Assembly (NCBI GenBank): GCA_016186325.1 | Contig: JACPLW010000002.1 | Location: forward strand, 1,485-65,484 | DNA from: Parcubacteria group bacterium | Lineage (GTDB): Bacteria; Patescibacteriota; Minisyncoccia; UBA10092 | Direction of reading: 5' to 3' | DNA: 64,000 nucleotides | In this document: piece after piece, positions 901 through 46,596 of the stretch | Numbering within the stretch: position 1 is the first letter of the stretch | Layout: every line of letters starts with the position of its first letter | The notes under the pieces: model-generated | Told to the model about the DNA's origin: nothing | The model's input: only the letters and a program-made list of their open reading frames with translations | Database searches by the model: none | Made by a program: the position numbers and the translations under genes

Positions 901-932
901 AATATATGTTAAAATATTTATTTTCTAAAATG

Positions 933-1004
933 TGGGCGCAGAAGGGATCGAACCTTCGATCTTTACAATGTCAATGTAACGCTTTACCACTAAGCTATGC
1001 GCCC
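933..1004 (-). tRNA. tRNA-Val(GAC), copy B
   Basis: GGGCGCA acceptor, anticodon arm TTACA-TTGACAT-TGTAA, T-loop TTCGATC. Confidence 0.92.
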
Positions 1005-2404: not shown

Positions 2405-2470
2405 TTATTTCATTAAATCATCAATTGAAACACCTAGCCCTTTAGCAATTTTCGCCATAGTTTCAATTTG
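2405..2470 (-). pseudogene. C-terminal remnant of an XRE-family HTH gene fused to the tRNA-Val 3' end
   Basis: Translates QIETMAKIAKGLGVSIDDLMK*, a typical XRE C-terminus; no N-terminal part. Confidence 0.6.
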
Positions 2471-2545
2471 TGGGCGCATCTGGATTTGAACCAGAGACCT
2501 TCTCAATGTCAATGAGACGCTCTAACCGGGCTGAGCTATGCGCCC
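2471..2545 (-). tRNA. tRNA-Val(GAC), copy A
   Basis: Anticodon arm TCTCA-TTGACAT-TGAGA, T-loop TTCAAAT; body sequence differs from copy B. Confidence 0.92.
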
Positions 2546-39517: not shown

Positions 39518-39592
39518 CAGAGAAAAACTAAATTTTGGGCCTATAGTCTAGTGGTAGAACACGTCATTCGTCCCGATTTATTAAATTTTTAA

Positions 39593-39847
39593 ATGTTTTA
39601 TTGCTATATATTAAAATCGAGAATAAATGGTGCTTATTATGTAGGAAGTTGCCAAAGCATTGCTATAAGGCTTGACCAACATAATAAATTTTTAGTTCCT
39701 TCCACAAAAAGATATGTTCCATGGGATTTAGTCTATCAAGAAAAATTTGTTACATTAAAAGAAGCTAGAAACAAGGAACTAAAAATAAAGTCCTGGAAGA
39801 AAAGAAGTTCTATAGAAAAATTAGTTAAAACATTTCAAAATTTTTAA
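39593..39847 (+). CDS. small GIY-YIG nuclease
   Basis: YCYIL...YYVG...RLDQHN...EARNKELKIK. Confidence 0.9.
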   Translation: MFYCYILKSRINGAYYVGSCQSIAIRLDQHNKFLVPSTKRYVPWDLVYQEKFVTLKEARNKELKIKSWKKRSSIEKLVKTFQNF

Positions 39848-39884
39848 TAAATCGAGGATCCGCGATAACCTTGGTGGGCCCAGA

Positions 39885-39958
39885 GGGCCCATAGTTAAGT
39901 GGTATAACGGCGCATTCGCATTGCGTAAGCGGGAGTTCGATTCTCCCTGGGTCCACCA
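39885..39958 (+). tRNA. tRNA-Ala(CGC), nested, CCA encoded
   Basis: GGGCCCA/TGGGTCC acceptor, GCGCA-TTCGCAT-TGCGT. Confidence 0.9.
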
Positions 39959-40456
39959 AGGTTATCGGGACATTGACGAAACGGCGGTCCGATTCCGCCT
40001 AGGTCCACCAAACAGGAAATTGCAAGCAAGAGGGAGTCGCCTTGCCCGTCTCGCTCCCGCGCTCCGCGCGGAAAAATGGTGGCGCAATTCTTGAACAAGC
40101 CCTAAGAGGCTATTTTGTTTTCTAAGAAAACAAAATTCAAATAATGACAAGGTTTTGGGCATAATTATTGAGGTTTTAGGCCATATTTTTGATTATGCCC
40201 AAAACCTTGACAAACTGACGTAAATTTGCTATAATAAAGATATAAAAATTGATGTAGTTTTAGATCAATTTTTGCTCTTGTTCTTTGCAAATTTGCGAGC
40301 GAATCTCCTTGAGATTTTGAAATGAGCAGCGCATTGAGTGGCTGAAACACCACTTGTTGCGCTAACAGATATTTAATGCACTGCTTATAACGAGTTAGAC
40401 CTCGTCGTGGTCGTGTAGGACACACGATTCAAAATCGCAAACCAAAGGAGGAGCCG

Positions 40457-42031: not shown

Positions 42032-42850
42032 CTATTCTGGGTTTTTTAATTTTTTATTCCTTAATAACAGGCGTATTTTGTACATTTTATCTTCATATTC
42101 CGCTTGAAAAACCTCATGAAGATAAAATCCTAAAGAAACAAGTTGAATTATCAGAAGAATAATACCTGTATAAAGGTAAAAATTGTTTTTCCATATTATG
42201 CCGGCTAAATAGAAAATCATGCTGAAAGCGGTAAGACCGGTGTGAAACCGCGCCCCGATCGTCGTTACTAAGTCATTTAGCAGAAATTCTTGCATAAACT
42301 CAAAATACAGCTGATCCCGCCTTTCGCGACGCTTTTCTCGCTGATAAAGCCACGTACCCAGCAAAATCAAAAACATACATGTTGCAGTGACTAGTAGAAT
42401 CGTGTTCATAATAAATAATGCCGGCCATCCAAACGATTTTGTCGCGTAAATGCTTAAAAATATCATCCATAAGATAAGTAAAAAATCTCTGGTATGATCC
42501 AAGAGAGTCCCCAAAGCTGTAACTTCATTGTTATTTCTCGCGACTGGGCCGTCTAAAAGATCGGTAATCCACGCAAAAGCTAAAAGCCATACTTGACGCC
42601 CAACATCATCCCCAAAATAAAACAGATCAAAAATCGCCCAAATAAGAACAACGAATCCCACCACGGTTAAATGATTTGCTCTTATTCCTATGGCTGCAAA
42701 AATATCGGTTATTTTTGTCCGCTTAAAGAACCGGTCGCGCCACTTTTTCTCAAGCGGTGTCCAATATCCCTCCTTCGTTAAAGCTTCCGCTGACGCCAAG
42801 GCTTTGGCGGACAAGTCGGCGGGCAAGCTCTCTTTTTCCTCTTCGGCCAT
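42032..42850 (-). CDS. CDP-alcohol phosphatidyltransferase
   Basis: DLLDGPVAR...GTLLDHTRD. Confidence 0.88.
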   Translation of the reverse strand: MAEEEKESLPADLSAKALASAEALTKEGYWTPLEKKWRDRFFKRTKITDIFAAIGIRANHLTVVGFVVLIWAIFDLFYFGDDVGRQVWLLAFAWITDLLDGPVARNNNEVTALGTLLDHTRDFLLILWMIFLSIYATKSFGWPALFIMNTILLVTATCMFLILLGTWLYQREKRRERRDQLYFEFMQEFLLNDLVTTIGARFHTGLTAFSMIFYLAGIIWKNNFYLYTGIILLIIQLVSLGFYLHEVFQAEYEDKMYKIRLLLRNKKLKNPE

Positions 42851-43590: not shown

Positions 43591-44826
43591 ATGGGAAAGA
43601 AAACGCAACGTTTAGTTGAATTAGCCCATAAGCACTTGCCCAGAAATTACGCTCCACCGGATGATCTTGTTTTAAGAAGAGGACATGGCTGTTATCTTGA
43701 AGACGTTAATGGTAATACCTACCTTGATATGCTTTCTTGCTATTCTGCCGCAAACTCCGGTTACGGCAATAAATCGGCAAATACGGCAATATTACGGCAA
43801 ATTGCCAAAGGTATTTTGTGCAACGCCAATTGTTTCTGGGAAGAGCAGAAAATTCTTTTTGCCCATGACTTGGCCAAATTCTGCAACGATTTTGGCTTAA
43901 ACGGACTTGATGTAGTTTTACCTATGAATAGCGGCGCCGAAGCGGTTGAAACGGCTATAAAAATAGCGCGTAAATGGCGTTACTGTTATTTAGCAAAAGG
44001 TATTGCCTATGACACAGCAGAAATTATTTGCTGCGAAAACAACTTTCATGGCAGAACTCTCGGCGCTATTAGCATGTCAACAGTAGATCAATATAAAAAA
44101 TACTTTGGTCCGCTAATCCCAGGCATAAAAATCGTTCCTTTCGGTAATGTAGACGCTTTAAAAAAGACAATTAATAACAATACAGCCGCATTTTTAGTTG
44201 AACCGATACAAGGCGAGGGCGGAGTTATTATCCCGCCCAATGACTACCTTTCCGAAGTAAGGAAAATTTGCGATGAACAAAATGTTTTATTTATTTTGGA
44301 TGAAATCCAGAGCGGTTTTGGCCGAACCGGTAGAATGTTTGCCTGCAACTACGATAATGTTGTTCCGGATATGATAATTTTGGGCAAGGCCTTGGGCGGC
44401 GGACTTCCGATTTCCGCGGTTGTCGGCAAAGAAGAGATAATGGATGTTCTTGATCCGGGAGATCACGGTTCTACATTTGGCGGCAATCCTTTGGCTTGCG
44501 CCGCGGCGCGGGCCTCGCTAAGTTTTATGCGGCGCCGTCGGCCGGATAGGCGAGCGGCTGAATTAGGGTTTTACTTTAAAAATAAGCTTAACAAGGTGGC
44601 GGCGCAAAGTCCGCACATTAAAGAAATAAGAGCACTTGGTCTTTGGATTGGCATTGAAGTTCACCATAGCGGCCCAACGGCTCATGAATTTTGCAAAGAG
44701 CTTTATAAAGAGAAAATACTCTGCAAAGAAACTAGAGAATATACCATTCGCATGAGCCCGCCCCTTACAATCACTAGAAAAGAGCTTGATTTTGCGCTTT
44801 CAAAAATCCAAAAAGTTTTTACATAA
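43591..44826 (+). CDS. rocD: ornithine aminotransferase (class III)
   Basis: MNSGAEAVETAIK, FHGRT, EPIQGEGG, DEIQSG, GKALGGG, HGSTFGGNPL. Confidence 0.88.
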   Translation: MGKKTQRLVELAHKHLPRNYAPPDDLVLRRGHGCYLEDVNGNTYLDMLSCYSAANSGYGNKSANTAILRQIAKGILCNANCFWEEQKILFAHDLAKFCNDFGLNGLDVVLPMNSGAEAVETAIKIARKWRYCYLAKGIAYDTAEIICCENNFHGRTLGAISMSTVDQYKKYFGPLIPGIKIVPFGNVDALKKTINNNTAAFLVEPIQGEGGVIIPPNDYLSEVRKICDEQNVLFILDEIQSGFGRTGRMFACNYDNVVPDMIILGKALGGGLPISAVVGKEEIMDVLDPGDHGSTFGGNPLACAAARASLSFMRRRRPDRRAAELGFYFKNKLNKVAAQSPHIKEIRALGLWIGIEVHHSGPTAHEFCKELYKEKILCKETREYTIRMSPPLTITRKELDFALSKIQKVFT

Positions 44827-44880
44827 TAAATTTTACCTCCATTGCATTTGGAGGTTTTATTATGTAAATTTATAGCCATA

Positions 44881-44953
44881 GGGCGACTAGCTCAATCGGC
44901 AGAGCGTCTCGTTTACACCGAGAAGGCAATAGGTTCGAATCCTATGTCGCCCA
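44881..44953 (+). tRNA. tRNA-Val(TAC)
   Basis: TCTCG-TTTACAC-CGAGA. Confidence 0.92.
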
Positions 44954-45054
44954 TAATTTAGCAAAGTGGGCCAAAGCCAAATGTTTGGCTTTGGCGGGAA
45001 TTTTAGTGAGCTTTAGCGAGCGTTAAAAAATTCCCCGGAAGAGCGACTCGTTTA

Positions 45055-45209
45055 TTCCCGATTTGTCTAAAAATTCAAGTTCTTGTAGAATTTTTAGCAA
45101 CAAATCGCAATCCCGCTTAAAGTGGGCGCATAGCTCAGCTGGTTAGAGCGTCGCATTTACACTGCGAAGGCCCTCCGTTCGAATCGGAGTGCGCCCACTT
45201 TGTGCGGGA
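45055..45209 (+). mobile_element. 155-bp anticodon insertion (TTCCCGA...GCGGGA) carrying a tRNA-Val(TAC), no ORF
   Basis: Same position and similar termini as the Ala insert. Confidence 0.72.
45124..45197 (+). tRNA. tRNA-Val(TAC), nested
   Basis: GGGCGCA/TGCGCCC acceptor, TCGCA-TTTACAC-TGCGA. Confidence 0.9.
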
Positions 45210-45339
45210 CACCGAGTAGGTCCGAGGTTCAATCCCTCGAACGCCCATCAAAATTTGATATTTGACACAACAAAAATAAGAAGTTATAATAGAAAAATTA
45301 GATCCGATAGCTCTTTTCAAATGTAAATGAGGGAACTAA

Positions 45340-45642
45340 ATGGCGACATCTGTTGGTAAAGCGGCCTCTAGAAAATCTGACAACTCCGAGCTTGTAAAAG
45401 CTCAGAAGAAAATAAAAAAATTAGAGGGTCTTTTGGCGATAGAACTTGAAAGAGCCGCCGAACTTCTGAAAGAAAACACGGAGCTTGAATCAAAGTTAGA
45501 AGAAACTCGTAAACAGCGTGATTGCTGGCAAAAACTTTACAGAGAGATAAATCCGGACAAAAAGATTGACTGTAATCGGCAGAATGCCCTAATTGTGAGG
45601 GGTGAAATAGATATGAGCGAAGTATTGGGACAGGAAAAATAA
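45340..45642 (+). CDS. coiled-coil hypothetical protein
   Basis: TTGACA..TATAAT promoter and GAGGG RBS upstream. Confidence 0.6.
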   Translation: MATSVGKAASRKSDNSELVKAQKKIKKLEGLLAIELERAAELLKENTELESKLEETRKQRDCWQKLYREINPDKKIDCNRQNALIVRGEIDMSEVLGQEK

Positions 45643-45699: not shown

Positions 45700-46596
45700 T
45701 TATTTTCTCTGTTTTCCGTGAAAAGCGTTGTGGACTTCTCTTAATTTTTTATCGGTTATGTGGGTGTAAATTTGAGTCGTGGTTATATTTGAGTGTCCCA
45801 AAAGTTCCTGAACCGAGCGGATATCGGCGCCATTCATTAAAAGATCTGTGGCAAACGAGTGGCGCAAAGTATGGGGCGTGACTTTTTTTGAAAGCCCGGC
45901 TTTAGCCGCATAATGCTTCATCAACCGTTCAACACTTCGGCTTGTCAACCGCAGATTATCGGTCTTGGCCGGATTTTTTGTTTGCCTGATGAAAAGTGCC
46001 TCGTCAACGTCCTCTCGTCTTTCCAAATAGTTTTTTAGCGCTTCTTTGGCGGTATCGGAGATGAAAACCAGGCGGACTTTATCTCCTTTGCCGCGCACCG
46101 AAAACTCGCCGGATTTAAGGTTGACCGAATCGCGGTTTAAATTGCAAAGTTCAGAAACCCGCAGTCCGGTGGAAAATAATAGTTCCAAGATAGCTTTATC
46201 ACGAGCGTTGGTTGGAGATGTTAGTAGGCGCTCAATTTCGTTCCCTTCAAGGAAAGATACCTGCCTCTCCGATTGTTTCCCCAGCTCAATTTTGTCGGCC
46301 GGCATAACCTTGAAATCCCGCCGTGCCAGATATTTTAAAAAATTCCTAAGCCCTATTAAATAATAATTCTGGGTGATCTTTTTAAGCCCTCTTCCGTCCT
46401 GATTTGCCTGCCGGTTCAGCCAAAGACGGTATTGCCTGACCATTTCCGGTGTGATTTGTTCCGGTTTTAAAACCTTAGAAAACTCAAAGAATTTTTTTAA
46501 ATACCGTTCGTAATTCACCCGCGTTTTAATTGACCGGTTTTTTTCTATTTCCAGATAATCCAAATAGTCTTTTAGCAATTCGCCTATGTTTGTCAT
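45700..46596 (-). CDS. XerC/XerD-family tyrosine recombinase
   Basis: TGLRVSEL, GKGDK, HTLRHSFAT, LLGH, TTQIYT. Confidence 0.93.
   Translation of the reverse strand: MTNIGELLKDYLDYLEIEKNRSIKTRVNYERYLKKFFEFSKVLKPEQITPEMVRQYRLWLNRQANQDGRGLKKITQNYYLIGLRNFLKYLARRDFKVMPADKIELGKQSERQVSFLEGNEIERLLTSPTNARDKAILELLFSTGLRVSELCNLNRDSVNLKSGEFSVRGKGDKVRLVFISDTAKEALKNYLERREDVDEALFIRQTKNPAKTDNLRLTSRSVERLMKHYAAKAGLSKKVTPHTLRHSFATDLLMNGADIRSVQELLGHSNITTTQIYTHITDKKLREVHNAFHGKQRK

Follow-up and report, generated by a model that had tools for sequence, protein, structure and literature searches.

The window analysed in this study, that is, the whole stretch of 64,000 nucleotides taken from contig JACPLW010000002.1 of a Parcubacteria group bacterium (assembly GCA_016186325.1), contains a tRNA-Val(TAC) gene that is interrupted within its anticodon, at TA|C, by a cassette that itself holds a complete tRNA-Val(TAC) gene (table 1). 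By direct reading and by script, the left flank of the insert was identified as ACTCG-TTTA (45046-45054) and the right flank as CAC-CGAGT (starting at 45210), and the latter is followed by a full T-arm and an acceptor strand that ends in AACGCCCA (45240-45247). The anticodon stem and the T stem of the outer gene each pair in 5 of 5 positions, which upholds the anticodon arm that a preliminary description of this DNA had rebuilt around the insert. The insert begins with TTCCCGATTT, has the centre CAA and ends in A, and tRNA makes up 75 of its 155 nt. Its first hairpin closes at 45107, and the second carries the inner, or cargo, tRNA on an extended acceptor stem; this tRNA was called by ARAGORN and by Rfam (70.5 bits) and is intact, as had been described. 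The free-standing gene noted earlier at 44881 was likewise recovered by both (69.8 bits). Neither an ORF within the 155 bp nor a target-site duplication at the two junctions was found. When the insert was folded as DNA, its z score was -8.2, and 0 of 200 shuffles were equally stable.

Table 1. Features of the tRNA-Val(TAC) locus and of the sister Ala element in the window
Feature	Coordinates	Strand	Remarks
Free-standing intact tRNA-Val(TAC)	44881..44953	+	Orthologous to the single gene at the same locus in congener G001
Two extra palindromes (44970-44995 and 44996-45035) replacing the outer acceptor 5' strand and D-stem 5' strand	44970..45035	.	Second palindrome and adjoining tRNA remnant also in L007
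Outer tRNA-Val(TAC), 5' remnant: D-loop end, D-stem 3' strand, anticodon stem 5' strand, loop up to 35	45035..45054	+	
Twin-hairpin cassette of 155 bp without ORF, from the CAA-centre subfamily, inserted blunt at 35/36 of the anticodon	45055..45209	.	
Hairpin 1, 53 nt, without ORF	45055..45107	.	Sigma-70-like match TTGTCT-17-TAGAAT at 45063-45091, meaning uncertain
Hairpin 2, left arm	45111..45123	.	Prolongs the cargo tRNA acceptor stem
Cargo tRNA-Val(TAC), intact	45124..45198	+	Stems 7/7, 4/4, 5/5, 5/5
Hairpin 2, right arm, and end of cassette	45197..45209	.	
Outer tRNA-Val(TAC), 3' half: position 36 to acceptor 3' strand	45210..45247	+	
Sister Ala element: tRNA-Ala(CGC) interrupted at 35/36 by a shell of 400 bp (39571-39970) that holds an intact Ala(CGC)	39537..40010	+	

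The outer tRNA-Val(TAC) gene is dead, beyond rebuilding. All that survives of its 5' half is 45035-45054, with CCGGAAGAGCG (45035-45045) as the remnant of the D-loop and D-stem, and palindromes have taken the place of the acceptor region, just as the preliminary description had it. After in silico excision of the insert, no outer gene was called by ARAGORN, whereas excision of the 400-bp Ala insert restored the outer Ala gene. The shell of the Ala element encodes, inside its hairpin arms, an 84-aa GIY-YIG protein (39593-39847; PF01541, E 2.4e-13), for which the NCBIfam match was sub-threshold only and the best PDB hit was to a UPF0213 protein (E 0.039). This element is a candidate source of a trans-acting nuclease. 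The two inserts had been thought to begin alike; in fact, the Ala insert starts with TCCCGATTT and has the centre AGGA, and that likeness had to be corrected.

Other features of this genome, called G000 here, were also recorded. Its genes, together with the closest named relatives of the Ala nuclease, assign the host to Patescibacteria (Parcubacteria). Because a second intact Val(TAC) gene (44881) lies 170 bp upstream, rescue by the cassette is not needed in G000. A tyrosine recombinase near the cassette (45700-46596) is also present in congeners without the cassette. A perfect sigma-70 consensus (45262-45290) precedes a 100-aa ORF (45340-45642) that has no Pfam match and also occurs in congeners. 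Two different tRNA-Val(GAC) genes of the window (932-1004 and 2470-2545, minus strand) are preceded by the same ~23 nt, which begin with a tRNA-like 3' end, and in a minus-strand ORF at 42032-42850 a GC-rich palindrome is apparently read in frame near the N-terminus. Elsewhere in G000, further intact tRNAs with extended stems lie in or beside halves of other tRNA genes, in other shell types: Glu(CTC) at C5:29680, Arg(TCG) at C9:45146-45220, Ser(CGA) at C9:1545, and Leu(CAG) at C5:289-373. The intron mode of ARAGORN also called Asp(GTC) at C1:115648-116544 (806 nt), Phe(GAA) at C8:8155-8360, and Gly(TCC) at C7:23399-23758, which may be introns, further nests or false calls. No gene for Ala(TGC) or Ile(GAT) was called in the tRNA list of G000; these possibly lie in an rRNA operon that is missing from the assembly.

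An assembler may be misled by tRNA genes and hairpins that resemble one another, and misassembly had been named in the preliminary description as what would overturn its account. No single contig of the four DNA runs searched spans the whole stretch. The right junction was covered in the groundwater runs, with just 17 letters on its left side, and counts as unbridged by our 31-letter rule; the joint 45054-45210 was absent among the joints in contigs of the four runs, contigs showing presence and not absence. A groundwater contig (run X4) shows 0 differences from 44917-45118 and extends across the left junction, although these runs may be the window's own source, and further contigs contain joints fitting G002-like and G003-like alleles. 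Against an artefact, the same cassette with the same junctions, in differing outer and inner genes, was found in four other genomes (G023, G162, and two further complete copies in G203 and G157) and in metagenome contigs of other samples. That the locus was created by assembly is thus hardly credible.

Insert-free alleles, proposed earlier as a check, do occur. At the orthologous position, congener G001 has one plain gene like that at 44881; G002 has one gene that is 99% identical to the cargo and has behind it TTTGT, with which the right arm begins; and in G003 a gene of the 44881 type is broken at TTTA| by a different shell with a different Val(TAC). One tRNA-Val locus therefore exists in four different states across four congeneric genomes. 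The Val cassette was absent from these 3 congeners and from 12 of the 13 genomes of the order of G162, and its presence is patchy, in separate families.

Metagenomes were scanned for the right end of the Val cassette, which gave 36 loci, or 39 together with the window, G023, and G162. Both junctions at TA|C were present in 31 of the 39, representing 17 distinct inserts, in a scan whose pattern also fixed the right junction and whose loci are not independent lineages. The other 8 had no left junction; in several of them the left arm and the 5' half of the outer gene are gone, so that the cargo stands as an ordinary gene followed by the right arm. A search for the left junction in 401 genomes returned G000 and one chance match outside tRNA only. 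A separate pattern search, which pinned the right junction near 35/36, was left out of the evidence on site choice, and several of its 30 loci were ordinary tRNAs or chance matches.

In these alleles the inner gene is kept and the outer gene decays. By stem counts, the innermost tRNA was intact in 15 of 16 distinct alleles, while the outer cloverleaf was intact in 3 and destroyed in 13; excision restored a normal Val(TAC) in 4 of the 17 distinct inserts according to ARAGORN. In L102 and L125 the innermost tRNA is a third-level one, because the cargo itself was invaded. Mean identity among 14 simple alleles was higher in the shell (0.87) than in the cargo (0.77), both values being inflated by a scan pattern that fixed the last bases of each. 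The anticodon stems of the cargos vary between alleles, yet all pair 5/5. Read by eye, at least six different acceptor stems can be told apart among the outer genes, in most cases with two matching strands. Since dead genes cannot co-vary, acceptor stems that differ yet match indicate that the cassette entered live genes repeatedly. In six loci (L101, L102, L103, L109, L125, and L127) the 5' strand of the outer anticodon stem repeatedly ends in GAG or AAG and has lost full pairing (2-3 of 5 pairs), and the 3' strand stays typical; possibly a flank was carried along, or the gene escaped from cutting.

Hairpin 1 is 37-64 nt long and ORF-less in 16 of the 17 distinct Val inserts, and the 17th (L116) has lost it. 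ORF-bearing alleles, which the preliminary description had proposed to look for among relatives, numbered 0 of 17. L116, L131, and L126 were considered as such alleles and rejected, as their ORF sits in place of lost parts: it encodes 223 aa (L116:506-1177), replaces the middle of the Val cassette behind an intact Val(TAC), and has no Pfam match above the cut-off. That hairpin 1 serves as a promoter of the cargo was kept as a minor idea only. A sigma-70-like match occurs in 9 of 16 Val alleles (8 with a 17-nt and 1 with a 16-nt spacer), which share descent, against 4 of 85 long generic hairpins; the idea is weakened by that shared descent and by the 3 of 20 found in other cargo copies of the subfamily. 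The cargo tRNA is presumably expressed.

The subfamily to which the cassette belongs was searched by its centre motif, so that selection was on neither target nor cargo. With one mismatch allowed, the CAA-centre motif was found in 82 of 401 genomes (control, 7). The 30 returned loci and 40 fetched regions contained 53 places with the exact motif, of which 29 were delimited as complete copies and 24, undelimitable, were left out. An intact tRNA was present in 20 complete copies and 9 were empty, and 0 of 29 had a GIY-YIG or other nuclease gene or an ORF-bearing hairpin 1. In all 20 tRNA-bearing copies the anticodon of the cargo is that of the interrupted gene (18 strictly, one via the left half only, and one with a changed base 33). 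The cargos were Cys(GCA) (7), Ser(GGA) (4), Ser(TGA) (3), Ser(CGA) (3), Val(TAC) (2), and Arg(GCG) (1); a single shell subfamily thus holds cargos of six anticodons, and in each case cargo and target agree. The preliminary description had treated 35/36 as the site, a rule that the subfamily does not follow: insertion is at 34/35 in 12 of 20 and at 35/36 in 8 of 20, the shell is reversed in 11 of 20, and a G at -1 or a C at +1 is present in every one of the 20.

The CAA centre and the TT start recur in reversed orientation in a Cys gene, where an extra T equals an extra A at the opposite end, and the 155-bp boundary is therefore fixed; both recur also in a triple Ser nest. This three-level Ser(GGA) nest (L005, in G048) has an outer shell nearly identical to hairpin 1 of the window. 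Empty CAA-centre shells lie at identical sites in different genomes (L242, L247, and L286; L263 and L272; L257 and L259), and these sites resemble other stable RNA genes. G000 contains one copy of the subfamily. Judging by shell ends and centre, which are shared with the Cys, Ser, and Arg cassettes, we regard the Val cassette as a separate old subfamily, sister to the GIY-YIG-bearing Ala element. The earlier term "non-autonomous derivative" of the Ala element can be kept in part: the cassette is ORF-less, belongs to the same hairpin-shell family and is non-autonomous at the family level, while its own ends and centre speak against derivation.

Of 401 genomes of the class, 46 contained matches to a generic twin-hairpin pattern, against 0 in the control. 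From 30 returned loci, which were read, and 79 more listed places, which were fetched, 102 copies of this wider family were delimited; they lie between genes, in frame within leuS, at the fusA 3' end, and in several places within tRNA genes. Position -1 is G in 67% of them and position +1 is C in 74%, within a weak TTG^CAA palindrome, and there is no target duplication in 96 of 102. Targeting of the junctions to predicted DNA hairpin loops was considered and dropped, there being no enrichment (27 of 102 junctions versus 112 of 408 shifted controls). GIY-YIG was the sole protein that the shells were found to contain, and it lay within the arms at 10 of 22 loci with a hit, a count that is not a frequency since loci were picked by shell or protein. 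In L047 a tRNA and a GIY-YIG gene occupy one hairpin. Viral contigs yielded 7 matches to the centre motif, none of them a shell by eye. Copies of 57 nt stand in frame at the same spot of a leuS-like gene, so named from peptide reading, in three genomes (L061, L062, and L191). In L027 (~1390-1870) and L169 a shell splits the last fusA codons at the same site, that of L027 having a GIY-YIG gene; a recoded complete fusA 3' end lies upstream in L027, and replacement therefore would rescue a protein gene too.

Considering that group I introns insert in bacterial tRNA anticodon loops and occur at 35/36 of Patescibacteria tRNAs, the insert might represent a novel type of intron: splicing would remove it from the outer pre-tRNA and release the inner tRNA as a by-product. 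Precise removal would restore a 7-nt loop, and the outer halves are intact in 3 of 16 alleles and in the Ala element. Beyond insertion in the anticodon loop, the resemblance to group I introns ends: these have a ribozyme core (P3-P9) ending in omega-G, a fixed sense orientation and conserved exons, whereas the Val insert has no core match and ends in A, and the cassettes occur at two positions in both orientations with most outer halves destroyed. An Rfam E-value scan of 44800-45350 gave tRNAs only above the gathering score and no group I intron match. Protein-spliced introns of the archaeal type need a splicing endonuclease and a ligase, and G000, which is 99.5% complete, has no match to PF01974 (tRNA-splicing endonuclease) or PF01139 (RtcB). 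Moreover, the outer gene of the window has no 5' acceptor strand, and the leuS copies of the family are in frame and open, like translated inserts. An intron is thus very improbable. Because the cassettes insert in either orientation and at two positions, beside decayed exons, and because no intron match, splicing endonuclease or RtcB was found, the Val cassette is best read as a DNA-level replacement and not a case of splicing, as the preliminary description had suggested. Three or four outer genes that are still intact and restorable by precise removal speak against replacement.

We consider it highly probable that the locus is an ORF-less break-and-replace tRNA cassette, a non-autonomous, MITE-sized, twin-hairpin element of Paceibacteria. 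At the level of sequence, comparison among copies establishes its boundaries, the absence of an ORF, insertion in either orientation, the match of cargo to target, decay of the outer genes, recurrent entry into differing outer genes, and re-invasion. The cassette would insert blunt, without target duplication, into the anticodon loop of tRNA-Val(TAC) and kill the gene. It would be tolerated, and able to spread between genomes, because its second hairpin supplies an entire tRNA gene of identical anticodon. The outer halves, now dead, would decay and gather other palindromes, the shell would be lost bit by bit, and the cargo would become an ordinary resident gene, open to renewed invasion.

Insertion may be started in trans by the small GIY-YIG nuclease of the family, which would act on single-stranded DNA much as SsnA acts beside its hairpin repeats. 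Recombination or repair by the host would complete it, probably on transforming DNA that enters the cell; G000 has ComEC. Against this route, GIY-YIG enzymes hydrolyse DNA and are not known to join strands. The link of GIY-YIG to the CAA-centre cassettes is drawn because their arm sequence is shared with the AGGA-centre subfamily; the 0 of 29 nuclease-bearing CAA-centre copies counts against it. Set against the two alternatives that follow, we would give this route about even odds.

The same replace-what-you-break cassette might be moved by a Y1 (HUH, RAYT-like) transposase through single-strand "peel and paste", with GIY-YIG as mere cargo. HUH chemistry is compatible with blunt, duplication-free insertion and with hairpin ends, one Y1_Tnp gene exists in G000 on another contig, and L047 illustrates that a tRNA and GIY-YIG can share a hairpin. 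Considering that the protein inside the shell arms is GIY-YIG and not Y1 (10 loci and the window) and that shells insert in both orientations, we find a Y1 transposase rather unlikely. It is also conceivable that each isotype cassette arose once by chance, from an empty shell and a rescuing tRNA, and was then passed on passively, through homologous recombination within conserved tRNA sequence and without a targeting nuclease. One arm set is common to all Val cassettes, ComEC is present in G000, and the chimeric outer gene of L127, together with several alleles that have the same odd left flank, is as expected of co-conversion. Yet the outer genes diverge up to the anticodon stem, which leaves little homology, a gene-killing insert without a cut has no drive, and the distribution is patchy, so that passive spread seems to us unlikely, a shade more so than a Y1 transposase.

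Miniature inverted-repeat transposable elements (MITEs) and Rickettsia palindromic elements are short, ORF-less, bounded by inverted ends and present in many copies, with in-frame copies in housekeeping genes. At the family level the cassettes resemble them in size, lack of ORF, terminal inverted repeats, and copy number, and in the 57-nt leuS copies. They differ from MITEs in the missing target-site duplication (window and 96 of 102 wider-family copies), the twin-hairpin build and the target-matched tRNA cargo, and their larger relatives encode GIY-YIG and not a DDE transposase, none having been found with a CAA centre.

Three further described systems share features with the cassettes. In tRNA-dependent lysogeny of actinobacteriophages, a whole prophage integrates by a tyrosine integrase at an attP/attB core of ~10 bp (Guerrero-Bustamante and Hatfull 2024, PMC10865867). 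The logic is shared, in that the element carries a tRNA of the disrupted isotype (in the window and in 20 of 20 subfamily copies), whereas the cassette is 155 bp long, has hairpin ends, nests its cargo where the target is broken and occurs in either orientation; neither an element-encoded integrase nor a duplicated att core was found in the Val cassette, which has no ORF and no junction duplication. Ssn consists of a small single-domain GIY-YIG gene bracketed by hairpin repeats (NTS/SRM) with many ORF-less repeat copies, and its authors remark on an IS-like architecture (Chenal et al. 2025, PMC11893778). SsnA cuts ssDNA only, adjoining the hairpin; NTS is a single 28-nt hairpin rarely found within genes, mobility was not demonstrated for Ssn, and that paper has 0 mentions of tRNA, CPR or Patescibacteria (PMC11893778). 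A single-domain GIY-YIG protein of ~90 aa flanked by hairpins is matched by the 84-aa Ala sister protein and not by the Val cassette. The phage T4 nuclease SegB, also of the GIY-YIG type, recognises a tRNA-gene sequence and spreads itself and neighbouring tRNA genes (Brok-Volchanskaya et al. 2008, PMC2330249). In contrast to the cassette, it is a free-standing double-strand homing nuclease of a phage that recognises a T-arm motif, without hairpin shell, nesting or ORF-less cassettes. No description of nested replacement tRNAs was found in the literature covered, most subscription papers lying outside it.

We put forward, as a tentative proposal that falls somewhat short of probable, that twin-hairpin shells moved in trans by single-domain GIY-YIG proteins form a new class of mobile elements, which would insert blunt, in either orientation, at TTG^CAA-like sites, copy whichever tRNA they break and repeatedly replace core tRNA genes horizontally across Patescibacteria. 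On this view, the Val(TAC) cassette, itself without an ORF, would act as a self-licensing homing unit, with the gene that it destroys as its sole cargo. Genes for tRNA are usually treated as stable core genes, in contrast to the four states of one Val locus. If the nuclease model is true, a very common class of small GIY-YIG genes, as yet uncharacterised, would be assigned a function, and the cassette would be a minimal gene-replacement device of ~80 bp plus cargo, without a recombinase of its own. What is called a tRNA "intron" in these genomes may be a dead gene that encloses its replacement.
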